A DNA stretch of 57,111 nt from a virus (lineage: Duplodnaviria; Caudoviricetes), in the IMG/VR virus record IMGVR_UViG_3300037847_002035, positions 1 through 57,111 of that record. One strand, 5' to 3'. Of the stretch, positions 1-41,664 are shown one piece after another. A program made the translations under genes and the position numbers. The stretch's first letter is position 1. Each line of letters starts with the position of its first letter. The notes beneath the pieces were generated by a model. The model ran no database searches. It was not told where the DNA came from and saw only the letters and a program-made list of their open reading frames with translations.

Positions 1-2
1 CA

Positions 3-806
3 ATGTTAATATTTGCTGATGACTTTGATCAACTCAATGTCTTTTCCAGATATATCGCAGGTCTACTAAAAGCATCTAACTTCTACTCATCATCTACTGA
101 TGATCAGATAAAAGCGATTGCGGCAGACTTCGTTGCAAAAGTTGTAGAAGCAGACTGGATGTTTAACTATATGAACATTCATGAAGACTTACTAGATGTG
201 GATGCATACTGTCAGAATATGATTACCACTCATGGAATGTTTTCTAATACATATCAGAACGGTGCTAACTTTAGTTACGATCTATTGTTCTATCTCAATG
301 ATCATCAAAGAAACTCTAGTGTCCAAGGTCTAATCAAAGAGAAATTCACTATCCACTCAAACACCATGGCAAAAGATGTGATGGAGCACTTTACATCACG
401 TAGACATTACATGGCATATTTTCTGGCAGTGATTGATTGGATGAATGCAAATGGATTTCCAGTAGACAAAGATGCGTGGGTGAAAGAAACATATCTAAAC
501 TTAGCAAACAAAGGGCAATACACTCAAGCATTCTATAAGATGGAAGAACAATGGAACCGTGTAAAAGATGACTCAGACTTTATTGCCGCACACCAATCTA
601 AAGCAGATAGCGCGGCAGATGGTTGGGAGTATATGGATCTTTACACAGAGTTTAAGAATGCATTCCCTATTGTGAGAAAAGTTATTCAACAAGATTACGA
701 TATGGATAATCTAACGGAAGATATTAAACTGATAAATACTGACGTTCAGTTCTTCTCAAAGAGACAAAACAGGATACCTTATTTGATTCACAAATACCCA
801 TTGTAG
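3..806 (+). CDS. hypothetical protein of the rSAM cluster (possibly 5'-truncated at the window edge)
   Basis: 267-aa ORF at the head of the + strand operon; no motif recognised. Confidence 0.75.
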   Translation: MLIFADDFDQLNVFSRYIAGLLKASNFYSSSTDDQIKAIAADFVAKVVEADWMFNYMNIHEDLLDVDAYCQNMITTHGMFSNTYQNGANFSYDLLFYLNDHQRNSSVQGLIKEKFTIHSNTMAKDVMEHFTSRRHYMAYFLAVIDWMNANGFPVDKDAWVKETYLNLANKGQYTQAFYKMEEQWNRVKDDSDFIAAHQSKADSAADGWEYMDLYTEFKNAFPIVRKVIQQDYDMDNLTEDIKLINTDVQFFSKRQNRIPYLIHKYPL

Positions 807-814
807 GATATATT

Positions 815-1552
815 ATGGAAACTATATGTTATGCTTTGCCACTTGCTCCGCAAGATTTAGTTGGCATTTATAAAGAAAAAGATGAAAGTGAAAAAGAGTA
901 TGTTCTCTATGTTGATTACGACAAGACAACTGAGAAGTTAACAGATCAGCATATTCTAATATATCTGGCAAACACGAACTTCAAAACTTCTTTCGATAAA
1001 ATAACTCCTAGTTTAGTACAAGAATTTATCAAGACTAATTTTCTTGTGCATTGTCCTATGCTCAGTAGAATTGTTGCTATGATATTGAAAGTTTATTTGA
1101 AATGGGATTTGACAGATGGTGAGAAACTATTAACTCAAAATCTATTCACCATGGAACAGATCGATGAGTTTATCAAACTCAATACAAATTTAATTGAGGA
1201 TCTGATTGAAGTTATCCAAGGGTTGTTTCCGTACACGTTATGGAAATTACATTCTCATATGGACGATCCGTCTATAGAACCTAATCTAGTAAAGTGCGTA
1301 GAAGAAATAGAGATTGTTGATCATCCTCTCAATATAGGTCCAAATATCGCCAGGTTGGTTACAGATTGTGTTGATGTTTTGTATTTGGTATTCCATATAC
1401 GAGGAGTTTCTCAAAAATTCAATAAACAAATTTATAATGATAATCCTAAATATCATGGAAGTGATTTGTTTTATCTTATGAACCAAACCAAGATTGTAAA
1501 CTGTATTATTGAAATGCTACCAGAGGATTTCTGGCATGATAAGACTGAATGA
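815..1552 (+). CDS. hypothetical protein of the rSAM cluster
   Basis: 245-aa ORF with AGGA RBS; overlaps the next gene. Confidence 0.8.
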   Translation: METICYALPLAPQDLVGIYKEKDESEKEYVLYVDYDKTTEKLTDQHILIYLANTNFKTSFDKITPSLVQEFIKTNFLVHCPMLSRIVAMILKVYLKWDLTDGEKLLTQNLFTMEQIDEFIKLNTNLIEDLIEVIQGLFPYTLWKLHSHMDDPSIEPNLVKCVEEIEIVDHPLNIGPNIARLVTDCVDVLYLVFHIRGVSQKFNKQIYNDNPKYHGSDLFYLMNQTKIVNCIIEMLPEDFWHDKTE

Positions 1553-2555
1553 TACCTATGCAGGGTACTACACATATGATAAAGACCACAGTCCGTCTAA
1601 CGTTGATTTTCTAAGGACGGAGATAAATCTTGACATCCTACATGGATGTGATCAGATGTGTCCTGGTTGTTTTATTCCCAGAAAGAACTTAACTAACGCA
1701 GATCATCTAAAAGATCTGTACGAACTATTAGTCAATGGCAGTTATCACCCAGACGAAATAGTTATAGGTCCTACCGACATATTCGATGCCCAAAACTTTG
1801 AGGAGATAATGAACCATGAGTATATGTTTAAACTTTATGAGATTTCTGCAATTGGATTCACGTCTACACTTCTACAACCATATTGGGTAATCAAATCAAA
1901 ACTAGAGAAGATATGGAGTTTGTATGCTCACATAAAAAGAGTACCCGACATAGACTTCAAGATTGTTTTAGATATAGACAAATACCTTGACGGTGAACTA
2001 GATGACTGGTACAAGAAGTTAAAACTATTCGTGAATGGTTCTGTACAGTTCAGGGTAAATTATTATAAAGGTGTCTTTGACAGAATTAGTTATAATGAAT
2101 TGTGTCAGAAAGCATATGATGACTTCCATGCACCAGTCGTAATCACCCCATCATTCTTGACAGACAGAAATGCTAGAGGTAAGGTAGAGCAACATCTAGC
2201 AAACTTTCGTAAAGATATGCTAGATCAAAAGATAGATGATAAGTGGAAAGAATACTACACATTCTTTGATGCTAAGTTCAACGGTTATGGTTGCCAGAAC
2301 TATAGTTTCTATAACGGCAAACTATATGTAAATCCATTCTTGTATGATGCAATTATTCAGAGGACTCCATTCTTTGAAACGACAATGGATGAGAACAAGT
2401 TATATGATAATATAGAATATGCACAACAGGTAGATGATTGTAATGGTTGTGAATACATGATGAGTTGTGCTGAGAGAAATGTTCACATGTATATGGAGTC
2501 AAGAGACTTGAATAGTTGCGTAGCAATTAAAGAGTACATGTATGCCACTCATTAA
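1536..2555 (+). CDS. radical SAM protein, divergent 'IGPTD' paralog 1
   Basis: CDQMCPGC (CxxxCxxC), IGPTD, C-terminal CNGC-x5-C...C; start moved to ATG 1536 after GAGGA. Confidence 0.85.
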   Translation: MIRLNDTYAGYYTYDKDHSPSNVDFLRTEINLDILHGCDQMCPGCFIPRKNLTNADHLKDLYELLVNGSYHPDEIVIGPTDIFDAQNFEEIMNHEYMFKLYEISAIGFTSTLLQPYWVIKSKLEKIWSLYAHIKRVPDIDFKIVLDIDKYLDGELDDWYKKLKLFVNGSVQFRVNYYKGVFDRISYNELCQKAYDDFHAPVVITPSFLTDRNARGKVEQHLANFRKDMLDQKIDDKWKEYYTFFDAKFNGYGCQNYSFYNGKLYVNPFLYDAIIQRTPFFETTMDENKLYDNIEYAQQVDDCNGCEYMMSCAERNVHMYMESRDLNSCVAIKEYMYATH

Positions 2556-3699
2556 GAACAACCTATATTACGAACTTACTACAGAGACACAGACTAAACC
2601 AGTATCTGCAGTGAAGATCCAGATGGACGTGTTGGATGGTTGCCACCACAAGTGTCCTGGTTGTTTTGTTCACCGTAGAGGCAACGCAAGCAATATAGAT
2701 CAATTAGCACAAGCAAAGGAGTTTGTCAAGAATATAACTGACAGAGGAATATTAGTTGACGAGGTCCTAATCGGACCTACAGACTTCCTTGCATCTGAAA
2801 ACTTCTATGAAGTAATGCCAGAACTAGAGGACATGATCAATGATAATTCACCCATACTTGCTTTTGTTAGCACTCTTATTGACGGTGACATTGTGCAGTT
2901 TTGTGATTGGATAACTGAGAGAATAAACCTAGACACAGAGATAGAGATAGGTATTGCAATAAACCCCCACAAGTTTTCTGAACAAACCTATTTACAAAAC
3001 ATCAAAGATAAGTTATGGTACATAGACAGAAACCTAATGCATGAGGTGACCTACACATTTGTTGTGAATATAAGAGACTATGGATTGGACTACACAGTTC
3101 TTCATGATAAGGCAGTGAAAGAGTTCAGCACTATCCTAGATTTTATTCCTTCTGTATCTCGGTCACACAAACCAAATATAATACTCAGCACACTATCGAA
3201 GTTCAACGAATACTTCAACGAGATTAGTAAGGACACCAAGTTAAATAATATTATGGTTGACCACTCACATGCAGGAATGAACTATACTGTTCTCAACTAC
3301 AAGAGAGGCGATTGGTATCTCAGTCCGTTTATGTATGAGAACATGGCAATCTATGATGATAGTCTCAAGGTAGAATCTTTTGACGATGTAGTCCCAATAA
3401 CTGAATCACAAATAAATAGAGCAAAGGGTACAGAGTGTGAAGACTGTCCATTGTTCTTTAGTTGCTACAACCGTAAGATAATTCTATTACGAGATTATCT
3501 GGGAGTCAAGCATTGCATTGCACCGAAAGAGAATATGCTAAACAACATACACAATTACAATGCACCTGCACAGACAATGTATCAATGGGATGGTTACAGC
3601 GTAGAGAATGATAAACGAGGATATCGAAAGAAGTTTTTGGTGACAGAAGATAACGATCCAGAACTAGAAAGAATAAAGAATATATCTTATGTTAAATGA
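2542..3699 (+). CDS. radical SAM protein, 'IGPTD' paralog 2
   Basis: CHHKCPGC, IGPTD, C-terminal CEDC-x5-C...C. Confidence 0.85.
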   Translation: MPLIKNNLYYELTTETQTKPVSAVKIQMDVLDGCHHKCPGCFVHRRGNASNIDQLAQAKEFVKNITDRGILVDEVLIGPTDFLASENFYEVMPELEDMINDNSPILAFVSTLIDGDIVQFCDWITERINLDTEIEIGIAINPHKFSEQTYLQNIKDKLWYIDRNLMHEVTYTFVVNIRDYGLDYTVLHDKAVKEFSTILDFIPSVSRSHKPNIILSTLSKFNEYFNEISKDTKLNNIMVDHSHAGMNYTVLNYKRGDWYLSPFMYENMAIYDDSLKVESFDDVVPITESQINRAKGTECEDCPLFFSCYNRKIILLRDYLGVKHCIAPKENMLNNIHNYNAPAQTMYQWDGYSVENDKRGYRKKFLVTEDNDPELERIKNISYVK

Positions 3700-4834
3700 C
3701 GAATGGAAAAAGATTGTAGTTGATGGGAATAGACTTGAAGAGTTTACTGCTATCTCTGCCATGTCCCAGTATAAGATACAACCTCAGTTAGAGATACTTG
3801 AGGGTTGTTCCTATATGTGTCCTGGTTGCTTTGTCAAACGTAAGGGCAACTGGAGTCCGTACTCTATTCATCTTTTCTGGGAACTCGCAAAGGAACTTAT
3901 GGGTAGAGAGGACATTGTATTGGATGACCTTGTCATCGGTCCTACCGACTTCTACGGTGCAGAAAACCTAGAGACGATTATAGAAGAAGTCAAACTGGCA
4001 GAAGGTATCATGATGATGCCTGAAGATAATCGCAATGTTCAACACAATTGTTCTATCCTTGGTTCGTTGTCTGAAAAAGATATAGAGGGAAAGATCCGTA
4101 AAATAGAAAAGTCACTGGTGGGGAGCGTGGTTAAGTCTTGGGACGTACAGGTGGCATTAGATGTTAAAAGACTTCTTTACGATAAAGAGTATAGGGGAGC
4201 ACTCGATAATCGTATCGAAACATTTAAGGAGTCAAGTCTTAACTATGAGATATCCATGGCAACAAATATAGTTGACGGTATCGAAGATATGATCTATGAT
4301 GCGATTGATTTAGTCAGAGAAGAATACCAGACAGTGATAGAGATCTTACCATCCGTAGTGAGATCATTTGACCACAGTCCAAAGCATGGAGAGAAACTAT
4401 TCGAGTGGAACGACATGCTCACGAAGTTATCTACTGACGAAAAAAGATTTAAAACAAAATTTCATTTCCTACAAGGTGACGTTTCCCATAAAGCATTCCA
4501 CTACTCCGTGATAAACATACACAATGGAAGAATGTTCATGGCACCTTTTATATACGAGAATGCACAGATATACAATGATGCTTTTCTTATTGACATTACC
4601 CAAGGTGGTGATATAGTGGATCGTATATTAGAACATAAGCACTGGATTGTCAACCACCAAATTCAAAACTCTCAGTTGACAGAGTGCCATACCTGTAAGT
4701 ATTTAAATATATGTTCTCACCGACTTGTCCCCAGAGTAATGGAAACAGTATTCGAGAACAGGAAAGAATGTATTCTAAATAAAGACGTGATACAACTATT
4801 TGACGATGAGGTTTATTATGGGAATAGTTACTGA
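3689..4834 (+). CDS. radical SAM protein, 'IGPTD' paralog 3
   Basis: CSYMCPGC, IGPTD, C-terminal CHTC-x5-C...C. Confidence 0.85.
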   Translation: MLNDEWKKIVVDGNRLEEFTAISAMSQYKIQPQLEILEGCSYMCPGCFVKRKGNWSPYSIHLFWELAKELMGREDIVLDDLVIGPTDFYGAENLETIIEEVKLAEGIMMMPEDNRNVQHNCSILGSLSEKDIEGKIRKIEKSLVGSVVKSWDVQVALDVKRLLYDKEYRGALDNRIETFKESSLNYEISMATNIVDGIEDMIYDAIDLVREEYQTVIEILPSVVRSFDHSPKHGEKLFEWNDMLTKLSTDEKRFKTKFHFLQGDVSHKAFHYSVINIHNGRMFMAPFIYENAQIYNDAFLIDITQGGDIVDRILEHKHWIVNHQIQNSQLTECHTCKYLNICSHRLVPRVMETVFENRKECILNKDVIQLFDDEVYYGNSY

Positions 4835-5843
4835 TAACAAATCCCACGCACAAGCAGACAAAGACTTTGATCTTAGTTTTAGTGAAGGACACGAGATCAA
4901 GGTGCAGTTCAACTGTGAGATCTTGTCTGGTTGCGAGTTCAAGTGTAAAGGTTGTTTCGTAAATAAACTAGGATCTAACGTAGGGGATTTTCAAAGACTC
5001 AATGATGCTATCGACTTATTCAATGAAAACGGTTACCGAGTTTCTACAATCAATATCGGACCTACTGATATATTCGGTAACAATAATGTTCTAGAATTGT
5101 TACAAGATGAAATATTTCGTGAATGTTTATCTAAGGTAACTACAATACAATTCGTAACAACTCTATCAGAACAAATAGATCTTAGGGTTATAGATCTACT
5201 AAACAGTATACCCAAGAAGGAAGGTTTTATGTACGACTGTAATGTGGTCGTAGAACATCCTGTTGTCTGGGGAAGTCTTCAGTCAAGACTCAACATGCTC
5301 AACCTATTCGAAGATGACCTAAACTATTATTTCGTTTACAATATGGGTAATGATGACGAAGACAATGAAAAGGTTCTAGATCTATCGAAGGTGACAGACA
5401 GATACTTTGATACGATACTACAACTCAACCCATCATTCTTTCGCGCACCCAAGAGTAAAGTGCAAAAGCATATGATTGAGAAATGGAAGAGTTATGATTT
5501 CAGTCACGACATGTACCCCAAGACAATTGCTGATCAGGCACAGGGTGGATCTTTAGAACTAAACTTTACTTACTGCAACGAGAGATTTTTCTGGACACCA
5601 TTTGTCTACGACATTGTCATGATAGGAACTGATGAGTTCGAAGTCAAGGAAGAGTGGAATATTAATTCTTGGACGAAGGTGAAAGAAGATCAATTTTTAA
5701 ATCAATTAGAATATACTGCAGAAACAGAACAATGTGCAATGTGTCCCAAACAGATGACGTGTATTGACAAAGGGGTCATCAGTTACATGAAGCATCACGC
5801 ACTTACCAGTTGTGTCTTCCCAGACTTTATTCGATCCATGTAA
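4818..5843 (+). CDS. radical SAM protein, 'IGPTD' paralog 4
   Basis: CEFKCKGC, IGPTD, C-terminal CAMC-x5-C...C; start ATG 4818 after GAGG. Confidence 0.85.
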   Translation: MGIVTDNKSHAQADKDFDLSFSEGHEIKVQFNCEILSGCEFKCKGCFVNKLGSNVGDFQRLNDAIDLFNENGYRVSTINIGPTDIFGNNNVLELLQDEIFRECLSKVTTIQFVTTLSEQIDLRVIDLLNSIPKKEGFMYDCNVVVEHPVVWGSLQSRLNMLNLFEDDLNYYFVYNMGNDDEDNEKVLDLSKVTDRYFDTILQLNPSFFRAPKSKVQKHMIEKWKSYDFSHDMYPKTIADQAQGGSLELNFTYCNERFFWTPFVYDIVMIGTDEFEVKEEWNINSWTKVKEDQFLNQLEYTAETEQCAMCPKQMTCIDKGVISYMKHHALTSCVFPDFIRSM

Positions 5844-6892
5844 TTAAACCACATTCGCATTACGCAGTCAGGTAGATCTCTTTCTCGGTTCTTCCAGTCC
5901 CATTGGGTGTAGCATCTAAACCCACACTTATCCCACCACTTACAAGAAAGACAACCGTGTTCATCCATGTATGCTTGCATCATACTGGCATTGTCTTGTC
6001 GGTTCAGTGGTGTGTTGAAATCTGATTTAGTGTAGCGATCCCACCTGCAGTTTGATATACTATTGTTCGGAAAGATAGTAACCTTGTTCAATGCCATGCA
6101 ATGCATGTGGTTATTCTCATTCTTTATAAGATCACTAATAGGGTTAATGTCGGGATAATTATGAAATATGAAGGTGAGGAAATCAAGGTAGAGACTATCA
6201 GATGGGATAAGATGGTCGAAACCTTTATCAGGAATATAATCGTCAAAGTAAAAATTATCAAACTTACTATAGAGATAGTGAAAATACTCATCGTCATCTT
6301 TCATAAACCTTTCTATAGACGGAACCGTTGCAACCATATTGATTGACGTAATGTAGTCGGCAAAGTATTCTATGTTCTTGCCGTAAGGTCCTCGTACTGG
6401 TCTACCATCAAAGTCATAGGAACAAATAATATAGGATGGTATATCTGCTTCATTCAAATCATCTAGGAGTTTTTGTACTTTGTCTCTCTTACTAAATTGA
6501 AACGATGTTACCCAAACAACTTTTATTTCTTGTTCGTATTTATCGTACAATTTCTTTATCTCTATCAGCATATCATAATAGACATCGTATGCCCAATCAG
6601 AGATCCTGTCTTGGAATAGTTCACCCCCAACCATATTGATCTGGCACGTCTTAACCATCCCCTGCATTTTCTTCAGGTGATCCTCAACAAGAGGTATCTT
6701 AGAGAACATTCCCTCACGAGAAAGACCAACTGTCGATTTCTTGTCGTGGTGACAGAAAGCACAGTTCAGGTGACAGTTCTCGAATAGCGTGAGTTCTATC
6801 TCACCTATGTTCGGTCTCTTCTTCTCTAGTAAGACTTTTGTAAAGTCAAAGTTTGTCAAACAGCATTTCCTCGTGGTAATACTCTCGGACAT
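5795..6892 (-). CDS. radical SAM/SPASM protein
   Basis: CHLNCAFC, GGEL, C-terminal CLSC-x5-CGFRC...C; real start may be TTG at 6859. Confidence 0.9.
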   Translation of the reverse strand: MSESITTRKCCLTNFDFTKVLLEKKRPNIGEIELTLFENCHLNCAFCHHDKKSTVGLSREGMFSKIPLVEDHLKKMQGMVKTCQINMVGGELFQDRISDWAYDVYYDMLIEIKKLYDKYEQEIKVVWVTSFQFSKRDKVQKLLDDLNEADIPSYIICSYDFDGRPVRGPYGKNIEYFADYITSINMVATVPSIERFMKDDDEYFHYLYSKFDNFYFDDYIPDKGFDHLIPSDSLYLDFLTFIFHNYPDINPISDLIKNENNHMHCMALNKVTIFPNNSISNCRWDRYTKSDFNTPLNRQDNASMMQAYMDEHGCLSCKWWDKCGFRCYTQWDWKNRERDLPDCVMRMWFNYMDRIKSGKTQLVSA

Positions 6893-7244
6893 CTGGGCAC
6901 ATACCCTTGTCCTCGTTGAATTCTAATCTTTTCAAAATCGCATCATATGTTTCCTTGTCTTGACTGTATCTCCGAAAGTATGGATCTTTCGGGATCAGAT
7001 CAGCATCGTCTAGCACTGTATAAAAGTCTTCTTTGAAATCTTTCTCTATCCATTTGGCATAACAGATAGCAACGAAGTAAGACTTAGCAGGGTAGATCCA
7101 GTCGTGCACCTTTATATTGAAATGTAGTAGTGCGTCTTCCACAACTGTATCTGGTCTGAAGTTTATTGGCACTCCTTCTAAATCATCTTTATACACTGAC
7201 TCCATCAAGTGGTAGGCGTTGGATCTTGCTTTCCATTCTTGCAT
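6846..7244 (-). CDS. hypothetical protein inside the rSAM operon
   Basis: 132-aa ORF overlapping both neighbours; contains YPAKSYFVAICYA. Confidence 0.8.
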   Translation of the reverse strand: MQEWKARSNAYHLMESVYKDDLEGVPINFRPDTVVEDALLHFNIKVHDWIYPAKSYFVAICYAKWIEKDFKEDFYTVLDDADLIPKDPYFRRYSQDKETYDAILKRLEFNEDKGMCPDVREYYHEEMLFDKL

Positions 7245-8130
7245 AATCTAATAATCCTTTATATCCATTACAACTGTGTGTTAGGTCTTTTACATATCTA
7301 TAATGTTCGGTCAAACATTTACCAAAGTATTCACAACTCTTACATATTCCAGACACGTTGTCAGTCTTTTCTTTCTCTGTCCACTTTATATAATCATCGT
7401 ATGAGTCAAGTTCAAGAAAGTATTCGTGGTCATTCTTATCAAACTCTAATACACCAAACCTGCCATTGGGTGTGATGTAAACATGATCATCACTGAATGC
7501 ATTGTATTGACCAGATAGCGAGTCTTCTATTCTAGCGGCATTCTCAAAGTGGAACTTCTTGTCTGGGTGCTCCAACCATTTTATAACAAAGTCTTCGAAG
7601 TCCTTATGCGTTACATTATGTTGGTTTGCTTGATTGGTCGAGTATGGTTTTATCTCTACACTCACAACATTAGAAACCATGTTCAAAGTAAATATCATAA
7701 AGTCCACGTCCATCTGCAATACCTTTTCGGATGCCAGTATCAGAACAGCAAGTTCTTTATTTGCATCCATCATATTACTGAGGACATGTTGTTGCTTCTC
7801 TCTTGCATCAAAGTCATACGATACCGATAATGTTATATCATCATCCCTAAAGAAGTCAGGGAAAGCAGAGAGGTTCGTGTTTATATTTATTTCTCCATCG
7901 TAGTATTTACGAATAACATCTTTCATCGAATAGAAATAATCTGGTCGAAGCAAACCAACTTCACCCCCATAGAGATCTATATGGTTTATCTCTGGGACTT
8001 CTGACAGTCTCTGATCTAATACTGAAAGTGTAATCTGTTGTCTATCACCTAATTGTTCTGGTGTCAAGTAGCAAAAGTCACAACGGAAGTTACAGTAGTA
8101 GGTAGGGTTAATGGACAGATTCATCGACAT
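7189..8130 (-). CDS. radical SAM protein with C-terminal Cys cluster
   Basis: CNFRCDFC, YGGE, CKSC-x5-C...C. Confidence 0.9.
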   Translation of the reverse strand: MSMNLSINPTYYCNFRCDFCYLTPEQLGDRQQITLSVLDQRLSEVPEINHIDLYGGEVGLLRPDYFYSMKDVIRKYYDGEININTNLSAFPDFFRDDDITLSVSYDFDAREKQQHVLSNMMDANKELAVLILASEKVLQMDVDFMIFTLNMVSNVVSVEIKPYSTNQANQHNVTHKDFEDFVIKWLEHPDKKFHFENAARIEDSLSGQYNAFSDDHVYITPNGRFGVLEFDKNDHEYFLELDSYDDYIKWTEKEKTDNVSGICKSCEYFGKCLTEHYRYVKDLTHSCNGYKGLLDYARMESKIQRLPLDGVSV

Positions 8131-9145
8131 AGGGAGTCACACCGTCTGGGTTCATTTTGTTTATCTCTAATATTCTGGGAGCAAGTGTTTTCATTTGTCT
8201 GCAGTGTTCTTCTACAGTTCCCTCTCGCTTCATGTCTCTGACAGTTTTCTTACAACCATTACAGATCTCAAACATAGGGCAAGTATAACATGACATCTTC
8301 ATAGTCTGGATGAGAGGATCATCTTGTAATGGTGTTTGCATCTCACCGTTCATCTCTTCATCGAAGTTTATTTCGTAGTCGAGATCATCTGCAAGTGAAC
8401 CACAGGAATAGTAATCACCGCCAGGATTGAAAGCACGAATACCTTCATCACATTTTCTATTCTGGGGACAACTGGTTGCAGAACCACCAAGTCTCTTCAT
8501 CATTGCTTTGGTATTGTATTCCCAAGGGTGAAGACCTTGATCGTAGATATCAACGTATGTCTTATACATCTTGCTCAACCGATAGGTATTGCCTTGGACA
8601 CCAGATGCCATGGCATAATTCAATTTACATTCTACATCCATTTCCTTGGCAAGTTTTACATTGTCGATAGCACGATAATCATTCATATCTGTAATCACTG
8701 CAATAAAGTCTGGTCTTTCTCCGCAGTACTTCAACATTGCGTCCGATACATTCCAGAAGTCTTCCTCAGTAAATTCACTGAAGTCTCCTTTGAGTCTACC
8801 ACCCCCATACTGAAAAGATGTGCAGACACCCATACGCGGATGATTGAATAGATCAACCCACTTCTCTGGTTTTACATAGAAAGGCCAAAGGTTAGTTGTG
8901 AATGAAATGTATGCAGGGTAGTCGTGTTCATCTAGATGCTCTATCAGTTTCCAATAGTAACTAGGATCTACCATCAACGGATCTCCACCATTGATAATCA
9001 AAGATTTGGTTTCAGGGTATCTTTTCAGAAACCTGAAGATATAGTCCATGTCCAATAAACCTGCATTGTTCGGATCGATTGCAGTCGAAGAACAAAACGA
9101 GCATTTGAAATTACATGCCTCTGTTGGTTTTATTATCAGATCCAT
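8108..9145 (-). CDS. radical SAM/SPASM protein
   Basis: KPTEACNFKCSFC, NGGDP, CYTC-x5-CNGC. Confidence 0.92.
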   Translation of the reverse strand: MDLIIKPTEACNFKCSFCSSTAIDPNNAGLLDMDYIFRFLKRYPETKSLIINGGDPLMVDPSYYWKLIEHLDEHDYPAYISFTTNLWPFYVKPEKWVDLFNHPRMGVCTSFQYGGGRLKGDFSEFTEEDFWNVSDAMLKYCGERPDFIAVITDMNDYRAIDNVKLAKEMDVECKLNYAMASGVQGNTYRLSKMYKTYVDIYDQGLHPWEYNTKAMMKRLGGSATSCPQNRKCDEGIRAFNPGGDYYSCGSLADDLDYEINFDEEMNGEMQTPLQDDPLIQTMKMSCYTCPMFEICNGCKKTVRDMKREGTVEEHCRQMKTLAPRILEINKMNPDGVTPYVDESVH

Positions 9146-10170
9146 TGTTTCTCTTTCGCTAGTTTCATCATTAGAGTTTTAGGTGCAGGACATACATCAT
9201 CCATCCAAGTTAACTGATGACAGTCAGAGTGGCAGTATAAAAACACTGGGCACTTGTAGCATCTCTCATCTCTTTCATGCATCTCACAAGAGATGATCTC
9301 CATTCGTTTAGGTAGAGTTCTCACTTCTTTTGCATTCATATCTATATGACCGTAGAAATCTACAGGTGCAGAGTTAGGGCATCCTGCCACTGTCCCATCT
9401 GCATTTATTGTGTGTATCTTTTGTTCACAATCTCTACAAAAGGTTCCGTTGAAGAACTGGTTTCTATCGTCAAACTTAGCATAGACTGAATCCAAGAAAC
9501 CATTTGCTACTGGATGGTTTTTGGTAGTCTCGTGCATTAACATCCACCAAGCATCTAGTTCTCTATTGTGAGGAAAGATGTCTGGGTTCAATGTGGCATT
9601 ACCGTTGTGAGTCAAACGTTCATAAGATATTTCGCTGACACCAAGTTCTTCCATGTAGTCTGCAATCTCTAATGGATGTTTACTGACAACATCTTTGGTA
9701 ACTGAAATAAAACACTTGACATCTAGTCCTTGTTGTACTAATGTGTATACATTGTTTTCCCACAATCGAAGTTGCCTATCATTAGCAAACCTGATATTAG
9801 AATCCCAACTAGTAGCAACATATCCACCAGAGATACAATTGTTGAAGAAGTCTAGGTGTTCTGCTTTTAGTTTGTACGTCAGGTTAGTGGTGATGCCGTG
9901 TGTACAGCGATCACCCCAATTGTCTTTTGTAATATCATAGAACTCCAATAGATCTTTCATTGGAGCAAGCATAGGTTCTCCTCCATGATACTCAAGATGT
10001 ATGAGATTATCCCCAGTGTCTAATTGATTACACCAGTTTGCAGTTTTCACAGGATCGAAGTAAATCTTCCTTCCGTTAGTTCCTGATGTAAAACAATGGG
10101 AGCAATTTAGATTGCAGGTCTCAGTGGTCTTTATGTATGCGATTAAGTGTTTCTGTGTCGCCAATGCCAT
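9136..10170 (-). CDS. radical SAM/SPASM protein
   Basis: KTTETCNLNCSHC, HGGEP, INADGTVAGC, CYKC-x5-CHSDC. Confidence 0.92.
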   Translation of the reverse strand: MALATQKHLIAYIKTTETCNLNCSHCFTSGTNGRKIYFDPVKTANWCNQLDTGDNLIHLEYHGGEPMLAPMKDLLEFYDITKDNWGDRCTHGITTNLTYKLKAEHLDFFNNCISGGYVATSWDSNIRFANDRQLRLWENNVYTLVQQGLDVKCFISVTKDVVSKHPLEIADYMEELGVSEISYERLTHNGNATLNPDIFPHNRELDAWWMLMHETTKNHPVANGFLDSVYAKFDDRNQFFNGTFCRDCEQKIHTINADGTVAGCPNSAPVDFYGHIDMNAKEVRTLPKRMEIISCEMHERDERCYKCPVFLYCHSDCHQLTWMDDVCPAPKTLMMKLAKEKQWI

Positions 10171-10588
10171 GGGATGCGATTAATGCCTTTTCATAATTTA
10201 ATGCTTTGTGTTTAGTTCCTGCAGGGATCATTAGTTTATCCCCGACTGTTAATATTACTTCTAGACCGTCAACCTCTAGAGATTTAGATCCTGCTTTGAC
10301 TTCAATAATAACGTCTACTGGATCTGTGTGTTCATCAAAGGTAGGTCCGAACTTTGGGTTATAGAATAGATGAATTGTTCTATCGTCAAACTTCCAATGA
10401 CGTTCCATCTGTTCTACTTTTATTGTTACCTTCTCCTCTGCCAAATGCCTCGCCATTTGAGATTGATAATCCCAATAATGAAAGGTGTCTATTTGATCTT
10501 GCAACCCACCCTCTCGTATTATAGATACGTCATGTGATTTGAAGCATTTCTCAGATAGCAGGAAATCCTCGAAGTCTTTAAAGTTCAT
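10121..10588 (-). CDS. cupin/JmjC-like (RoxA/YcfD-type) oxygenase
   Basis: HTDPVD (HxD) metal ligands, GSK, IPAGTKH distal His. Confidence 0.7.
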   Translation of the reverse strand: MNFKDFEDFLLSEKCFKSHDVSIIREGGLQDQIDTFHYWDYQSQMARHLAEEKVTIKVEQMERHWKFDDRTIHLFYNPKFGPTFDEHTDPVDVIIEVKAGSKSLEVDGLEVILTVGDKLMIPAGTKHKALNYEKALIASHGIGDTETLNRIHKDH

Positions 10589-10612
10589 TTACGTTCCTTA
10601 TATATAAAAGAG

Positions 10613-10620
10613 TATTTATA
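10613..10620 (-). promoter_or_regulatory. T4-type late promoter (TATAAATA) of the minus-strand rSAM operon
   Basis: + strand TATTTATA about 25 nt upstream of the 10588 start codon. Confidence 0.7.
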
Positions 10621-10631
10621 ATGAGGTTACA

Positions 10632-11195
10632 ATGATATATCACAGATGGTCTACTCCTATTGAACATTCTTCTAATCATATAGGAATGAAACCAATACAA
10701 GATCACCTTCTCACTCACTATAATGTCCCAAATACTATTGGTGATAATTATAACATATTTGATGACGAAAGTAAACCCATAGAAGACTTAAAAGATATGG
10801 CATATGCCAACTTTAGAAACTTTGCTAACGTAAATTTTGGGGTAAACTTAGACGAATATCATAGCGTGTTAAAAGGGTGGTTGACACCGACAGAAGATCA
10901 TGCTATGGCAGAGCACAATCATATGGGTGCTTGGTTCTCTTCTGTATATTATATAATGGCAGAGGAAGAAGATCAAGGTGGGGAGATAATCTTTACAGAT
11001 CCCAGAACAAATGCAAACCGAGGATATGATCAGAAGTTTGCGAAGCACTTCAAAGAATTTGTTATCCAACCCAAGACAGGCGACTATGTGATATTTCCTT
11101 CGTTCCTCTATCACTGGGTAAACAAATTTACTTCTAGGTTCAGGATAGCAATACCAATCGACATCTACTTATTCGAAAAGACTAGACAATACTAG
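10632..11195 (+). CDS. 2OG-Fe(II) oxygenase (TIGR02466-like, common in marine phages)
   Basis: HNH...SSVYY, FTDPR, IFPSFLYHWV, R..I motifs. Confidence 0.85.
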   Translation: MIYHRWSTPIEHSSNHIGMKPIQDHLLTHYNVPNTIGDNYNIFDDESKPIEDLKDMAYANFRNFANVNFGVNLDEYHSVLKGWLTPTEDHAMAEHNHMGAWFSSVYYIMAEEEDQGGEIIFTDPRTNANRGYDQKFAKHFKEFVIQPKTGDYVIFPSFLYHWVNKFTSRFRIAIPIDIYLFEKTRQY

Positions 11196-11217: not shown

Positions 11218-11664
11218 ATGATTGACCTAAAGCAAATACACGCAATGTGGGCAGAGGACTGCCAGATAAATCAAATGAAGTTAGCAGACGCATCGAGAGA
11301 TACTCCTGCACTACATGCGAAGTATCTGGAACTGCACTCTACATTTAAACTCATGTTGAAACGTGCAGAGTTTGCACAGAAGACTTTGCTAAAGGACAAA
11401 TGGTTATATTATAATGGTAAGATGTCTGAAGAAGAACTGACTGAAAAAGGATGGGAACCAGATCCGTTCAATGGGTTGAAAATACTCAAAGGGGAAATGG
11501 ATTACTATTACGATTCAGATCCAGAGATACAAAAGTCAGAAGAGAAGATACAGTACTACAAAACTGTTATCGATACTTTAACAGAGATAATAAATAATCT
11601 TAATTGGCGACACCAGACAATAGGTAATATAATCAAGTGGAAGCAATTCGAGTCAGGAAACTAA
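11218..11664 (+). CDS. uvsY: recombination mediator UvsY
   Basis: W..D..I, TP.LHAKYL, YY.G motifs; adjacent to uvsW. Confidence 0.9.
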   Translation: MIDLKQIHAMWAEDCQINQMKLADASRDTPALHAKYLELHSTFKLMLKRAEFAQKTLLKDKWLYYNGKMSEEELTEKGWEPDPFNGLKILKGEMDYYYDSDPEIQKSEEKIQYYKTVIDTLTEIINNLNWRHQTIGNIIKWKQFESGN

Positions 11665-13127
11665 ATCATTCCGATCTCCAGATTGAATGTGATAATGGAA
11701 CAGCACAGGAACTAAACGAATACTTTTCGTTCTACGTACCTGGTTATAAGTTCATGCCAAGTTATCGCAATAAGATCTGGGATGGTAAGATACGTTTGTT
11801 TACTCTCAGAGAGAGAACATTACCTGTTGGATTGTACTACCACCTAAAAGAGTTTTCCGATAAGAGACAATATAATCTATTACCAGAGAAAAGTAAATAC
11901 GGAAAACCAGATGATCGTACTCACGTCAGACCTACAGAACTAAAAGAATTTTTAAATAATTTAAATTTACCATTCCCACTCAGAGAATATCAGTTCCATG
12001 CGGTGGGCGAAGCATTGGTTCGTAAACGAGCAATCTTATTATCACCGACAGGTTCTGGTAAGTCGTACATGATCTATGCACTTGCTAGGTTCTGGTATGC
12101 AATGCTAACAGACGGTAGATCGTTTCCAAAAGGTGGACGTGTTCTTGTGATTGTTCCTACTACTTCTTTGGTTGAGCAAATGCACAGTGACTTCATAAAC
12201 TATGGTATGCCCGAAGGGGGAATGCATAAGATCTACTCTGGTAAGGACAAAGCAGTAGATGCCGCAATCGTGATATCTACATGGCAATCAATATATAAGT
12301 TGCCGAAGGTTTGGTTTGAACAATTTGGTTGTGTCTTTGGGGATGAGGTGCATGGATTCAAGTCAAAGTCTCTGATGAGCATAATGAACAAATGTACAGA
12401 AGCAGAATATAGATTTGGAACGACAGGAACATTAGATGGGTCACAAACGCATGAGTTGGTTTTACAAGGTCTATTCGGGAAGATATATAAAGTCATCACT
12501 ACGAAGCAACTACAGGATAACGATACTCTTGCCGCGCTCACTATCAGGAGAGTCATTCTTTCATATAAACACGAGTTTCGGGAATCTAACAGGGAAAACA
12601 CCTACCAAGAAGAAATCGACTTTATCGTTGGTCACGAGAGACGGAATAAATTTATCAGAAACCTCGCGCTAGATCTCAAGGGGAATACTCTAGTGCTATT
12701 CAATTATGTAGACAAGCATGGGAAACCTTTGCATAATCTGATAAGAGATAAAGCAGAAGATCAGAAAGTATACTTTGTGTCTGGAGAAACTGCAACTTCA
12801 GATAGAGAAGCAATCCGTGGTATTGTTGAGAAGTCTGACGGTGCTATTGTTGTTGCGTCCCTAGGAACCTTTTCCACAGGTATAAATATTAGAAACTTAC
12901 ATAATATAATATTTGCCTCACCGTCCAAGTCTCAGATAAGAGTATTGCAATCAATAGGTAGAGGTCTAAGAAAAAGTGATGATGGAAGAGAAACCATGTT
13001 ATATGATATATCTGATGACCTAACTTGGAAGAAAAGAAAAAACTATTCTCTCTTACACTCAGAGGAGAGAGAAAGAATATACAAAAAAGAACAGTTCAAC
13101 TATAAAACGGCAGTGATCCCCTTATGA
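11637..13127 (+). CDS. uvsW: SF2 helicase UvsW
   Basis: WDGKIRLF, SPTGSGKS, DEVH, QSIGRGLR. Confidence 0.95.
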   Translation: MEAIRVRKLNHSDLQIECDNGTAQELNEYFSFYVPGYKFMPSYRNKIWDGKIRLFTLRERTLPVGLYYHLKEFSDKRQYNLLPEKSKYGKPDDRTHVRPTELKEFLNNLNLPFPLREYQFHAVGEALVRKRAILLSPTGSGKSYMIYALARFWYAMLTDGRSFPKGGRVLVIVPTTSLVEQMHSDFINYGMPEGGMHKIYSGKDKAVDAAIVISTWQSIYKLPKVWFEQFGCVFGDEVHGFKSKSLMSIMNKCTEAEYRFGTTGTLDGSQTHELVLQGLFGKIYKVITTKQLQDNDTLAALTIRRVILSYKHEFRESNRENTYQEEIDFIVGHERRNKFIRNLALDLKGNTLVLFNYVDKHGKPLHNLIRDKAEDQKVYFVSGETATSDREAIRGIVEKSDGAIVVASLGTFSTGINIRNLHNIIFASPSKSQIRVLQSIGRGLRKSDDGRETMLYDISDDLTWKKRKNYSLLHSEERERIYKKEQFNYKTAVIPL

Positions 13128-13753: not shown

Positions 13754-14350
13754 ATGCCACGAAAGAATAAGAAAAGCGCACATTATGTGAATAACGCAGA
13801 TTTCTCGAATGCAGTCGTGGAATACGTAAAGACAGTTAATGAAGCAAAGTCTTCAAACAAAACTATACCCAAAGTACCAGATTATATTGCTCAGTGTTTT
13901 CTTAGTATCGCTGAAGGTTTGTCTCACAAATCTAATTTTATTCGCTACACATACCGCGAAGAAATGGTCATGGATGCAGTTGAGAACTGTCTCAAGGCAA
14001 TAGAAAACTATAGCATAGAAGCGGCAACCAGAACAGGTAAACCAAATGCATTTGCATATTTTACTCAGATAACTTGGTACGCATTTTTACGTAGGATTGC
14101 AAAAGAGAAAAAACAGCAAGACATTAAACTAAAATATCTAACAAGATCAGGAATAGAACAATTCGTTGATGGCGATCTAAGCGATGATTACACTATGAAT
14201 GTTGTGGGGTCTTTTGTTGATACGCTCAGAGATCGTATAGATAAAGTGAGAGAATTTGACACAGAAGTCAAAACATATGCCAAAGAAGAGAAACTCAGAA
14301 AGAAACGTGCAGTGGTTGTAGATTCTGACTTGACGGAGTTTATGAAGTGA
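13754..14350 (+). CDS. g55: late transcription sigma factor gp55
   Basis: HYVNN, IAEGLSHKSNF..YTYREEMVMDAVENC, NAFAYFTQI. Confidence 0.95.
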   Translation: MPRKNKKSAHYVNNADFSNAVVEYVKTVNEAKSSNKTIPKVPDYIAQCFLSIAEGLSHKSNFIRYTYREEMVMDAVENCLKAIENYSIEAATRTGKPNAFAYFTQITWYAFLRRIAKEKKQQDIKLKYLTRSGIEQFVDGDLSDDYTMNVVGSFVDTLRDRIDKVREFDTEVKTYAKEEKLRKKRAVVVDSDLTEFMK

Positions 14351-38417: not shown

Positions 38418-38701
38418 TGACACCTTATGAAGAAATAGATTATAAGTTCAACGAAGACAAGTTACTTGCTGAATTTAAAGAGTACATAGATGGAACCTAC
38501 AACGCCCATTACTCCAAAGAAAAATTCCAAGCGACTGAGTTTATCGTGGATAGCGGTCACGGCACTGGGTTCATGATTGGAAACGTGATGAAGTATGCAC
38601 AACGATACGGCAAGAAGGGTTCCAATGCAGATGCTAGGAAAGACTTGCTTAAAGTGTTGCACTATGCCCTTATGCAACTTCATGTCCATGACTCTACATA
38701 A
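38417..38701 (+). CDS. DUF3310-like phage protein
   Basis: HY, GF.IGNVMKYAQRYGKK, DLLK..HY. Confidence 0.75.
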   Translation: MTPYEEIDYKFNEDKLLAEFKEYIDGTYNAHYSKEKFQATEFIVDSGHGTGFMIGNVMKYAQRYGKKGSNADARKDLLKVLHYALMQLHVHDST

Positions 38702-39179
38702 CTCCGCTAGAACTTTTCATATACATGTAAACAAAGATACCTATTAGACCAAGTATGGTGACTCCTAATGGAATAGCAATCATAAGTTTTTCTTGAAACT
38801 CTGCTTGCTTCTTCAATGCTTCTCTTCTCAATTCTTCGAGACGTTCTTTTTCTTCTTTGATTCTCTGTTGACGTAGCGCGACAATTTCTTTCCACGTTCC
38901 CCAACCGAATCTATGATCGATTAGTTCACGCATTTCTTCCATTTGCTCTGCCGCAAGTTTTGCATCGATTACCTCTTTGGCAACCGATTTAATTCCTAAC
39001 TGGTCAGAGACAGAGTTCCCTCTTTCGACTTTTGCTTTCTGAACTTGAGCATTACCGTCTAAGAGGTTCTCTAACTGAGTACCAATCTCACCAATGTCTT
39101 TTACTGTATTGATATTCGATTTGATGAAATCCACTGACTGTTTCACCAAAGCAATACCTGCTAAAACTTCTGCGACCAT
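38694..39179 (-). CDS. coiled-coil protein with C-terminal TM helix
   Basis: 161-aa ORF; late promoter upstream. Confidence 0.75.
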   Translation of the reverse strand: MVAEVLAGIALVKQSVDFIKSNINTVKDIGEIGTQLENLLDGNAQVQKAKVERGNSVSDQLGIKSVAKEVIDAKLAAEQMEEMRELIDHRFGWGTWKEIVALRQQRIKEEKERLEELRREALKKQAEFQEKLMIAIPLGVTILGLIGIFVYMYMKSSSGVM

Positions 39180-39237
39180 TTTTTTCTTTCATTTAAATTT
39201 TAATATAGGTCACAGGTTTAATCTAAGTCAGTACTGG

Positions 39238-39245
39238 TATTTATA
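39238..39245 (-). promoter_or_regulatory. T4-type late promoter TATAAATA
   Basis: + strand TATTTATA upstream of the gene starting at 39179. Confidence 0.6.
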
Positions 39246-39260
39246 AGTATTATATATACT

Positions 39261-39690: not shown

Positions 39691-39709
39691 CACAACACAG
39701 GAGATCACA

Positions 39710-39937
39710 ATGGCAAATCCATATCAAATCCGTTACGATGTTCTTGCAATGGCAAAGGATATCGCAGACAAGAACTACGAAATGCAAAAAGAACTTGCAT
39801 GGAAAATGATAGACATGGCAAAAGATAATTCAGATCAAGTCATGGATGCTTGGAAAACTTATGTCCCAAAGGCAGTAACGCCAGAGGAGATAAAGGAGCA
39901 AGCAGATAAACTATATGAGTTCGTTACCAAGAAATAA
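39710..39937 (+). CDS. hypothetical protein
   Basis: AGGAG RBS; NPYQIRYDVL.MAKD...A.KLYEFV. Confidence 0.75.
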   Translation: MANPYQIRYDVLAMAKDIADKNYEMQKELAWKMIDMAKDNSDQVMDAWKTYVPKAVTPEEIKEQADKLYEFVTKK

Positions 39938-39944
39938 ATCGCAG

Positions 39945-39972
39945 GGGGTTTGGTTTATTTAAACTGAACCCC
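39945..39972. terminator. hairpin between convergent genes
   Basis: GGGGTTTGGTTT-ATTT-AAACTGAACCCC; weak U-tracts. Confidence 0.45.
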
Positions 39973-41619: not shown

Positions 41620-41635
41620 ATAATTAAAAAACCTC

Positions 41636-41664
41636 TTGACAATCGCTTTTAGTTGTGGTACTAT
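41636..41664 (+). promoter_or_regulatory. sigma70-like promoter
   Basis: TTGACA-17-TACTAT. Confidence 0.65.

Follow-up and report, generated by a model that had tools for sequence, protein, structure and literature searches.

We analyzed a window of 57,111 nucleotides (nt), positions 1 to 57,111 of the IMG/VR virus record IMGVR_UViG_3300037847_002035 (Duplodnaviria; Caudoviricetes), for which CheckV gives a completeness of approximately 32%. Its first 11 kb hold a gene cluster encoding eight radical S-adenosylmethionine (radical-SAM) enzymes, two oxygenases, and three unassigned proteins, and this cluster, together with the proteins that it may modify, is the subject of the present analysis. 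The window also encodes the T4 core genes uvsY, uvsW, a gp55-like late sigma factor, an SbcD/gp47-like protein, and a family-B DNA polymerase. These genes place the virus, a marine phage, with the T4-like (Straboviridae-type) phages. The uvsY gene (PF11056; E = 2e-30) lies just past the 2-oxoglutarate (2OG)-Fe(II) oxygenase gene that ends the cluster, and uvsW follows uvsY (Pfam). The features are as follows.

3-806, plus strand: o01, unclassified protein, 5'-truncated by the contig end (longest open reading frame [ORF])
815-1552, plus strand: o02, universal accessory protein (phrog_20767)
1509-2555, plus strand: r1, divergent radical-SAM enzyme of the r0-r4 paralog family (CDQMCPGC; C-terminal CX2CX5C...C)
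2542-3699, plus strand: r2, radical-SAM paralog of the r0-r4 family (CHHKCPGC; phrog_31457)
3689-4834, plus strand: r3, radical-SAM paralog of the r0-r4 family (CSYMCPGC)
4800-5843, plus strand: r4, radical-SAM paralog of the r0-r4 family (CEFKCKGC)
5795-6892, minus strand: r5, core radical-SAM/SPASM-like enzyme (CHLNCAFC; 7 C-terminal Cys)
6846-7244, minus strand: o08, small core accessory protein (phrog_20737, E = 4.9e-36)
7189-8130, minus strand: r6, core radical-SAM enzyme (CNFRCDFC; one 4-Cys C-terminal cluster)
8108-9145, minus strand: r7, core radical-SAM/SPASM enzyme, the best conserved (CNFKCSFC; CX15..GX4C + CX2CX5CX2C + C)
9136-10170, minus strand: r8, core radical-SAM/SPASM enzyme (CNLNCSHC)
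10121-10588, minus strand: cupin/JmjC-like Fe(II) oxygenase, heading the minus-strand operon (Cupin_2, JmjC_2)
10613-10620, minus strand: TATAAATA, T4 late-promoter-like motif approximately 32 nt upstream of the cupin start
10632-11195, plus strand: 2OG-Fe(II) oxygenase (PF13759/TIGR02466 family)
13754-14350: gp55-like late sigma factor gene

A first-pass annotation of this DNA had described eight CX3CX2C ORFs, four per strand and each with a C-terminal Cys cluster, and a frame scan bears this out. The motif occurs in exactly 8 of the 96 window frames of at least 100 amino acids (aa; stop to stop), all of them within 1.5 to 10.2 kb, compared to 0.42 such frames on average and 3 at most in residue shuffles (n = 200), and a C-terminal CX2CX5C cluster is present in all eight enzymes. 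The JmjC-like cupin, the 2OG-Fe(II) oxygenase, and the three unassigned ORFs that had been placed beside uvsY and uvsW were likewise recovered. Gene coupling is extensive, as had been noted: measured on longest ORFs, same-strand neighbors from o01 to the cupin gene overlap by 10 to 56 nt at 10 of 11 junctions, with an 8-nt gap between o01 and o02. Since the starts used are longest-ORF starts, the true overlaps may be smaller.

The assignment of all eight proteins to the radical-SAM enzymes holds at the level of the CX3CX2C motif (8/8), which is also present in a ninth relative, r0, encoded by an overlapping contig described below. At the level of family models it holds for r7, which alone reaches the cutoff of 29.5 bits for Pfam Radical_SAM (PF04055) with 34.2 bits, followed by r6 (28.3 bits), r8 (22.3 bits), r2 (19.9 bits; E = 9.2e-4, under the cutoff), and r5 (13.5 bits); r1 and r3 have no Radical_SAM match, and r4 matches only Fer4_12 in Pfam. 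The enzymes fall into two groups. Those of the first, r1 to r4, are mutual paralogs with 22 to 27% identity (r2 is 26% identical to r1 and 27% to r3) and belong to phrog_31457, whereas r5 to r8 represent four distinct lineages within phrog_1802 (E = 7.8e-21 for r5, 2.8e-36 for r6, and 6.3e-53 for r8). By inspection, r5, r7, and r8 carry 7 to 8 C-terminal Cys spaced as in SPASM domains, whose seven-Cys pattern (CX9-15GX4C ... CX2CX5CX3C ... C) serves two auxiliary clusters, while r6 and r0 to r4 have only four (CX2CX5C...C), enough for one cluster. SPASM scores (TIGR04085) are 24.6 bits for r8, 18.6 for r7, 15.8 for r5, and 14.8 for r3, compared to a cutoff of 27.

The r0-r4 group is the more divergent in sequence. 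In an alignment of 16 sequences, the CX3CX2C motif and the four C-terminal Cys are invariant, and a GPxD element occupies the site of GGD/E in other radical-SAM enzymes. An AlphaFold2 model of r1 (predicted local distance difference test [pLDDT], 75.7; predicted template modeling score [pTM], 0.79) contains six beta/alpha units, and its best PDB folds (Foldseek) are the sactipeptide synthase CteB (5why; E = 5.2e-4, template modeling [TM] score 0.51) and anSME (4k39), within a top set of CteB, anSME, SuiB, viperin, BlsE, SpeY, and twitch enzymes (E = 5e-4 to 2e-3; TM score, 0.29 to 0.51). The model thus predicts a partial (beta/alpha)6 TIM-barrel radical-SAM fold for r1. A profile of r0-r4 matched no radical-SAM enzyme among PDB sequences, the best match being a fiber protein (E = 0.11), and an hhalign comparison with r7 was weak (probability 24.5%, 78 columns).

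Among the core enzymes, r7 is 52 to 59% identical in jumbo phages. Its best NCBIfam matches are the dynobactin enzyme DynA (E = 3e-10) and anSME (E = 4e-9), both under the cutoff, and its best PDB sequence match is anSME (4k36; E = 8.4e-5). For r8, the best NCBIfam matches are the cyclophane synthase AmcB (1.8e-9), PapB (8.8e-8), and DynA (1.3e-7), again all under the cutoff. Judged by sequence, the cluster enzymes do not appear to be cofactor or nucleotide enzymes, and their best, if weak, matches are SPASM peptide/protein maturases. This agrees with the first-pass annotation, which had favored such maturases over QueE, MoaA, or NrdG. The window enzymes score 13 to 26 bits against models with cutoffs of 126 to 325 (NCBIfam): at most 22.3 bits for NrdG (cutoff, 126 to 131), 26.4 for MoaA (284), and 22.4 for QueE (260). 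The existence of these weak matches, the adjacent uvsY and uvsW, and two dihydrofolate reductase genes that interrupt the cluster of phage RSF1 could still be read as signs of a pathway for nucleotides, DNA, or cofactors, be it QueE-, MoaA-, or NrdG-like or one of thymidine hypermodification, that lies beside recombination genes by chance, and radical-SAM enzymes do take part in phage thymidine hypermodification according to the available text of one report (PMC8989533). The low scores, the SPASM-type Cys sets, and fold matches that point to peptide/protein maturases argue against such a pathway, in which the near-perfect gene linkage described below also has no place. We regard it as largely refuted and give it next to no probability.

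No RiPP (a peptide made on the ribosome and modified after translation) recognition element (RRE) or other leader-recognition domain, leader peptidase, or exporter was found among the cluster proteins in Pfam, NCBIfam, and PHROG, although an RRE had been suggested as something to look for. With the radical-SAM motif of the enzymes beginning at residues 11 to 52, r6 to r8 have no room for one.

A six-frame scan of the window recovered no ORF with the Cys-His-Xaa-Ser (CHxS) tail that is introduced here, and the candidate substrate was therefore taken from L008, a near-identical overlapping contig. L008 aligns to positions 1 to 9376 of the window with 99.6% nt identity and no gaps and runs further upstream. 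There, o01 is complete (362 aa) and is preceded by a ninth radical-SAM gene of the r1-r4 type, r0 (401 aa). Before r0 we find two tandem ORFs ending CHTSCHTSCHTSRGRR and CHTSCHSSCHTSRGRR (in longer form, ...ICHTSCHTSCHTSRGRR and ...VCHTSCHSSCHTSRGRR). The first-pass annotation had proposed to inspect the DNA upstream of base 1 for a short Cys/His/Ser-rich precursor, and this inspection was positive, the two tandem CHxS-tail genes being candidates for it.

The tail is widespread. Scanning the loci in hand in six frames gave 36 tail ORFs in 28 loci, and the sequence CHxSCHxSCHx[S/N]R[G/S]RR-stop does not vary among 28 distinct complete proteins whose bodies barely align. For example, the L008 tail protein is 47 to 55% identical to that of L019 over the whole protein and 94% identical over the last 16 residues. 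The bodies are of two types that can barely be aligned with each other. T4-type tail proteins are approximately 127 aa long, occur as tandem pairs, and share a conserved N-terminal QLRTFDKT, an HRFEY motif, a helix, and a variable Gly/Ser/Thr/Asn/Tyr-rich insert, while jumbo-type tail proteins are approximately 180 to 300 aa long; in each type, the helix that immediately precedes the tail is conserved. The tail proteins have no Pfam or NCBIfam family, and their sole PHROG match is phrog_35144, of unassigned function. A profile of the T4 type gave only chance-level hexon matches in the PDB (E = 0.23 or more). Of 179 metagenomic tail-protein candidates, 150 match at E <= 0.01, and all those named by their source are called "hypothetical protein."

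Both the cluster and its association with the tail gene are conserved across phages. From an r7 search of IMG/VR, 80 of 174 relatives were kept, and the cluster order is maintained across these 80 loci down to approximately 61% r7 identity. This and the occurrence in unrelated jumbo phages uphold the earlier expectation that the gene set is conserved as a unit (80/80 viral loci fetched with r7). Cultured carriers are Agrobacterium phage Atu_ph07, Sinorhizobium phage Phosso, Ralstonia phages RSF1 and RSL2, Burkholderia phages FLC6, FLC8, and SURPRISE13, and Pseudomonas phage pPa_SNUABM_DT01, which are jumbo phages of unrelated lineages with the cupin, r8, r5, r7, 2OG oxygenase, r6, and o08 genes in one block. 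The tail is carried by gp170 of Atu_ph07, directly after the r8-like gp171, and by ORF071 of RSF1, directly after the r8-like ORF070. We then searched by the tail alone, with a degenerate DNA pattern, which returned at least 120 viral loci and 27 loci in a collection of species-representative genomes. Among the viral matches listed, 113 of 120 tail loci carry at least one cluster radical-SAM family; the seven misses are five loci of 1.1 to 4.1 kb and two (L170, 8.6 kb; L196, 10.7 kb) with the tail gene near the end. The corresponding figure for the genomes is 26 of 27, the single miss being a 5.4-kb locus (L101) with the tail gene at its edge.

Two gene orders can be distinguished. The jumbo-type order is cupin>r8>tail gene>o02>r5>r7>(2OG)>r6>o08, seen also in Atu_ph07 (gp171/170/169) and RSF1 (ORF069-075), and an r8-like ORF lies directly upstream of the jumbo-type tail gene in 77 of 83 distinct cases. 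The T4-type order is tail gene x2>r0>o01>o02>r1>r2>r3>r4. The window thus combines a T4-type module minus its first three genes, which lie beyond the contig end, with a jumbo-type module that lacks a tail gene of its own. Both modules are complete in one relative, G001, at separate places. There, a second, jumbo-type set (L089 1126-10078; G001:C1:29-38 kb) comprises r8', a 195-aa CHxS-tail protein, r5', and r6; the main window-type cluster of G001 lacks r6, and the two sets may therefore complement each other. Another relative of the window (G003, a 159.6-kb record) has 15 Radical_SAM matches in its genome, approximately 10 of which, most above the Pfam cutoff, form a second block (C1:20170-34463) separate from the window-type cluster. 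In RSF1 (L007 8864-9980), the two dihydrofolate reductase genes mentioned above and an HNH endonuclease gene are inserted between the r5-like and r7-like genes.

We favor the explanation that the cluster is the maturation machinery for the tail (Cys-His-Xaa-Ser)x3-Arg-Gly/Ser-Arg-Arg of these variable-bodied proteins, which the conserved association of genes and motif makes reasonably probable. Further clues come from the genes around the tail genes. The ORF directly upstream of the first T4-type tail gene ends in ...EVK[VI] and is fiber-like in 34 of 40 distinct cases; such ORFs encode up to 2830 aa when complete, and most stop 1 to 3 nt from the tail-gene start. A neighbor of this type is also present at 5 of 83 jumbo-type tail genes. 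In G002, two tail genes follow two collagen-repeat tail-fiber genes without a gap (Collagen and PHROG tail-fiber matches). Pfam finds only Collagen, and no S74 domain, in these fiber proteins, and the C-terminal "...EVKV" domain of the fiber therefore has no name. This arrangement recalls that of T4, in which the distal fiber gene g37 is followed by g38, a small adhesin/chaperone gene. Here too, a large fiber gene is followed at its 3' end by an abutting small gene, whose product has conserved ends and a variable middle rich in Gly/Ser/Thr/Asn/Tyr. We know of no need of gp38 for radical-SAM maturation, which is a difference from the role proposed for the tail proteins. Radical-SAM cassettes inside the host-recognition cluster are described for pelagimyophages in the accessible portion of Zaragoza-Solas et al. 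(PMC7029224).

In addition, the timing of expression may be late. Of 84 distinct regions upstream of cupin genes, 25 contain the TATAAATA motif, which in 18 of the 25 falls in the -40 to -31 bin, and a motif of the same type lies at -74 of T4-type tail genes in 10 of 50 cases. Its count across the window is not above chance (7 versus 4.9), and the argument here draws solely on its conserved position ahead of the cupin gene.

The system is not confined to phages. Of the 27 genome tail loci, 16 come from metagenome-assembled genomes (MAGs) of Bdellovibrionota, on contigs of up to 1.29 Mb. In a Halobacteriovoraceae genome (G004), the cluster encodes r6, r7, the 2OG oxygenase, r5, a second oxygenase, a tail protein ending CHSSCHSSCHGSRARR, o02, a second r5, r8, o08, and also a JmjC-like protein. 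Genes for acyl-CoA dehydrogenase and serine dehydratase border the cluster on one side and genes for YchF and phosphoribosyl pyrophosphate synthase on the other, with no phage genes in view around it. The posttranslational modification pathway that the first-pass annotation had ascribed to phages is supported by the linkage to the tail gene, but it is not phage-only, because it is also chromosomal in Bdellovibrionota. Fibers are near in these bacteria as well: a Peptidase_S74 (fiber chaperone) protein is encoded 3 to 6.5 kb from the cluster in all three Bdellovibrionota genomes checked, accounting for four of their eight S74 matches (the only one of G004, at approximately 3 kb; one of three in G005; and two of four in G006). 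S74-terminated fibers are prey-recognition adhesins in B. bacteriovorus, as stated in the available text of PMC10769870.

On the Halobacteriovoraceae chromosome (locus L238), two genes lie directly downstream of r6 on the minus strand (9768-11006 and 11373-12908). They encode a 413-aa protein whose N-terminus is hydrophobic and pilin-like and which carries a Peptidase_S74 domain, the only S74 match in the 3.7-Mb genome, and a 512-aa protein with a faint GT8-like match. The tail motif with radical-SAM neighbors was also observed on a 4.3-kb contig of a cultured Dysosmobacter segnis isolate (L106), in a Methanobacteriota MAG (L117), and on L094, L100, L105, L112, and L116; the assignments of these contigs are to a Firmicute isolate and to archaeal, Rickettsiales, Rhodobacteraceae, and Flavobacteriaceae bins. 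All seven are probably phage contigs in bins or assemblies.

The same linkage could arise if the CHxS-tail protein were an accessory and not the substrate, that is, a Cys/His metal or iron-sulfur carrier that feeds the radical-SAM enzymes or a metal-binding module of a trimeric fiber, with the true target of the enzymes being the fiber itself (e.g., at the collagen-like repeats), some small molecule, or nucleic acid. Three Cys and three His within 12 residues are a plausible metal or iron-sulfur ligand set, and each enzyme needs two to three clusters. Collagen-like fiber genes adjoin tail genes, and 2OG oxygenases can hydroxylate collagen. Multi-radical-SAM T4-like genomes have, moreover, been linked to iron-sulfur assembly genes in the accessible part of Nishimura et al. 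(PMC5332604). However, a generic carrier has no need of hypervariable bodies or of tandem divergent copies, Ser and RGRR are invariant too although they do not serve as metal ligands, and in jumbo phages and Bdellovibrionota the tail gene stays between r8 and o02 in clusters that have no collagen genes. We therefore consider a carrier or accessory role unlikely.

The tail could instead be a RiPP core, modified and then cleaved off to give a free, crosslinked peptide of 12 to 16 residues or a peptide-derived cofactor, the body serving as a long leader. An invariant core behind a variable upstream part, served by several radical-SAM/SPASM enzymes, is the pattern of cofactor-type RiPPs, and the conserved helix before the tail could be a recognition element; pyrroloquinoline quinone and mycofactocin both derive from a precursor peptide. 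Release would nonetheless call for functions that no version of the cluster encodes (no peptidase, exporter, or RRE), and neither the size of the bodies (125 to 300 aa), each type of which conserves a motif at its N-terminus (in the T4 type, QLRTFDKT), nor the tight coupling of the genes to fiber genes is what a leader would suggest. A released peptide thus appears quite improbable. The first-pass annotation had left the choice between a RiPP-like peptide and a virion protein; the candidates, at approximately 125 to 300 aa, are not short peptides, and "protein posttranslational modification" fits better than "RiPP natural product," because no RRE, leader peptidase, or exporter was found. The favored maturation of the CHxS tail would accordingly yield a product that stays a protein, there being neither protease nor exporter, and the absence of protease, exporter, and RRE, the large variable bodies, and the fiber-gene coupling together favor a protein end product working with the fiber.

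Two further proteins accompany the core enzymes. The first, o02, has 158 ORF matches in the loci examined, including Atu_ph07 gp169, RSF1 ORF073, and L238 17651-18379, and normally follows directly after the CHxS-tail gene in jumbo phages and Bdellovibrionota. Searched against 1.84 billion proteins, its profile matches 674 cluster representatives at E <= 0.001. The AlphaFold2 model of o02 is of high confidence (pLDDT, 93.9; pTM, 0.91) and has no match in the PDB (best E = 0.48; highest TM score, 0.24); in BFVD it matches only its own uncharacterized orthologs, and the ESM Atlas gave no usable match. The model therefore points to an accessory fold absent from the PDB, and o02 is a candidate substrate-binding partner. 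Prediction of a complex between o02 and the T4-type tail protein scored 0.41 (runs 0.69, 0.00, and 0.41), with 0.00 for the best of three controls. Of 80 solved complexes used for calibration, 58 reach the mark applied to such predictions, as do 2 of 110 mismatched pairs; at scores of at most 0.60 it is reached by only 7 of those 80 complexes and by both mismatches. Contact agreement between the o02-tail runs is at least 0% and the partner pLDDT at least 37. The predicted complex lends weak support to a partnership. Some o02 homologs (P0187, P0189, P0197, P0207, and P0212) are 391 to 604 aa long, as in RSF1 ORF073. These long forms were considered as informative domain fusions and rejected, their N-terminal extensions being acidic or of low complexity without a recognizable domain.

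The second, o08, has 91 ORF matches, including Atu_ph07, RSF1, and Bdellovibrionota, and nearly always adjoins r6; it has no Pfam or NCBIfam family, and the ESM Atlas returned only sub-0.9 "hypothetical" clusters. The third unassigned protein, o01, is found in T4-type loci only (45 ORF matches) and has no Pfam, NCBIfam, or PHROG family. Of the oxygenases, the cupin scores 24.1 bits against Cupin_2 (E = 3e-5; cutoff, 27.2) and 22.3 bits against JmjC_2 (cutoff, 22), yet no single stretch passes the latter alone. Its sequence shows H-T-D and a later His, a Bdellovibrionota ortholog reaches 32.3 bits for JmjC_2 (E = 7.9e-8), and the order cupin>r8 is conserved. The other matches 2OG-FeII_Oxy_5 (E = 1.5e-14) and phrog_81, and many jumbo-type loci, like RSF1, have its gene between r7 and r6.

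The bacterial HXS antiphage defense (HxsABCD; models TIGR03976-03979) resembles this inventory in several respects. According to the available text of its description (PMC13128918), a +8-Da change on SHRSS of HxsA requires HxsB, HxsC, and HxsD, HxS repeats are the modified element of HxsA, and HxsD binds HxsC. Repeated H-x-S units (three in the CHxS tail, which also has a basic RGRR end), several radical-SAM enzymes, and a small partner (there HxsD with HxsC, here o08 beside r6) are common to both, and r6, r7, and r8 give weak HxsC/HxsC4 matches (E = 1e-3 to 4e-5). A phage counterpart of HXS, mediating superinfection exclusion by blocking competitor DNA entry, would account for these likenesses. 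Yet HXS membership fails on every profile test. The cutoffs for HxsB, HxsC, and HxsD are missed widely (17.9 to 22.8 versus 268 to 500 bits), with 17.9 (r6) and 22.8 (r7) versus 267.9 bits for HxsC and 17.9 (r8) versus 500 for HxsC4, and at E <= 1 the HxsA and HxsD models match neither o08, o02, nor the tail proteins. The tail proteins have no peptidoglycan-binding domain (Pfam) and no obvious signal peptide (by eye). Unlike in HXS, three CHxS units stand at the extreme C-terminus followed by RGRR, and the carriers are phages and predators, not defense islands. Finally, the late promoter and the fiber linkage point to virion assembly, and a counterpart of HXS is, in our judgment, highly improbable.

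Returning to maturation of the CHxS tail, the core machinery would comprise r5 to r8, o02, o08, the JmjC-like cupin, and the 2OG oxygenase, common to jumbo phages and Bdellovibrionota, to which T4-like marine phages would add the five paralogous radical-SAM enzymes r0 to r4 and o01. By removing hydrogen atoms from the tail, the radical-SAM enzymes would crosslink its side chains; our parsimonious guess is that His is joined to Ser at i+2, as in triceptides and dynobactin, and/or that Cys-derived thioethers are formed or Cys/Ser oxidized in an anSME-like manner. Each reaction would be repeated across the three CHxS units, and the Fe(II) oxygenases may hydroxylate tail residues, His or Arg. The end product would remain an intact protein, made late, and probably acts with the tail fiber in host recognition.

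These candidate reactions follow the chemistries of the nearest enzymes, namely, i to i+2 crosslinks (triceptides and dynobactin), Cys thioethers (PapB, CteB, and QhpD), and Cys/Ser oxidation (anSME). As in anSME (anaerobic sulfatase-maturating enzyme) and QhpD (quinohemoprotein amine dehydrogenase maturation), the CX3CX2C motif stands at the very N-terminus without an RRE, r5, r7, and r8 have the set of 7 to 8 C-terminal Cys, and what the enzymes are proposed to modify is a motif with Cys/Ser that forms part of an entire protein; anSME is also the best PDB sequence match of r7 and among the best folds of r1. The sulfatase motif has C-x-x-x-R spacing, and the last tail repeat with the following Arg (C-H-x-S-R) has the same. 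In contrast to those systems, scores are far under the cutoffs (36 versus 349 bits for anSME and 17.6 versus 453 for QhpD), four to nine enzymes are found per substrate in place of one, the motif is new, and oxygenases and two accessory proteins are added. The triceptide synthases (AmcB, YhhB, FxsB, and GrrM/OscB; the His-based HtkB/HaaB) and DynA are the top NCBIfam matches of r8, of r7, and, more weakly, of r6. These enzymes crosslink an aromatic residue or His to residue i+2, which the H-x-S of the tail fits, and their precursors likewise repeat the motif within one protein. HtkB, for instance, makes a His C2-to-Lys C-beta link, as given in the accessible text of PMC11499958. Unlike these systems, the present one matches under the cutoffs, has an extra invariant Cys per repeat, substrates of 125 to 300 aa, no RRE, protease, or exporter, and a phage or predator setting beside fibers.

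Several observations weigh against the proposed maturation of the tail. The window holds no tail ORF, and neither RRE, leader peptidase, nor transporter was found in the cluster (Pfam and NCBIfam scans). The substrate role draws on genomic association and remote similarity, a candidate precursor being linked to the enzymes genetically, and the chemistry is a guess because all matches to characterized maturases are far under the family cutoffs. For r0 to r4, the radical-SAM link comes from the invariant motif, a medium-confidence model, and a weak hhalign match, with no PDB profile match, and the o02-tail complex is weak by its own calibration. In Atu_ph07, gp170 is a "hypothetical protein" in RefSeq, where some other genes are "virion structural protein," and the authors of the phage description ran virion mass spectrometry. 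Two RNA-library runs cover 0.18 and 0.05 of sampled words, with contigs over 22 and 4 of 30 bins, which is not counted as expression, because such libraries may contain DNA; bins without contigs carry no weight.

Elsewhere in the window, positions 38694-43786 form a low-GC island (GC 0.30 versus approximately 0.38) with reversed skew. It carries minus-strand ORFs without a PHROG family, an acetyltransferase-like ORF (41191-41619, minus strand), and a DNA methyltransferase gene (42863-43786, plus strand), and has the look of a flexible or acquired segment within a T4-like backbone. No tRNA genes were found in the window, and no near-identical DNA was found in the cultured-phage collection.

Radical-SAM multiplicity in phages has been noted before. 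Nishimura et al. (PMC5332604) report a T4-like marine genome with 12 radical-SAM genes, and multi-radical-SAM sets of marine T4-like and jumbo phages are listed without substrate or purpose in the available portions of four papers (PMC5332604, PMC7029224, PMC8066314, and PMC11898562). We found no paper on a CHxS (Cys-His-Xaa-Ser) tail or on radical-SAM-modified fiber proteins in a search that left most subscription journals uncovered. The system is undescribed: its putative substrate motif and its accessory fold are new, its enzyme multiplicity is unusual, and its distribution over phages and predatory bacteria is unexpected. An invariant 16-residue candidate substrate makes the multi-radical-SAM question testable.

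If the tail is indeed the substrate, this would be a new radical-SAM protein modification on a Cys/His/Ser motif and a very heavy viral enzyme investment (9 to 12 iron-sulfur enzymes), with a possible link of posttranslational chemistry to host or prey recognition common to phages and predatory bacteria. The tail motif together with o02 would also serve as an annotation marker for a family now called "hypothetical." More tentatively, a radical-SAM factory present in at least three unrelated phage lineages and in Bdellovibrionota may turn the (Cys-His-x-Ser)3-RGRR end into a multiply crosslinked, hydroxylated knot, possibly metal binding, that is required for assembly of the tail fiber or prey-recognition fiber, for binding, or for envelope breach on Gram-negative hosts, a scenario that we consider possible but doubtful. 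It would represent the first radical-SAM-dependent modification of a virion receptor-binding apparatus. Both the substrate motif and the accessory fold (o02) would be new, and a single genome would dedicate as many as a dozen enzymes to the task.

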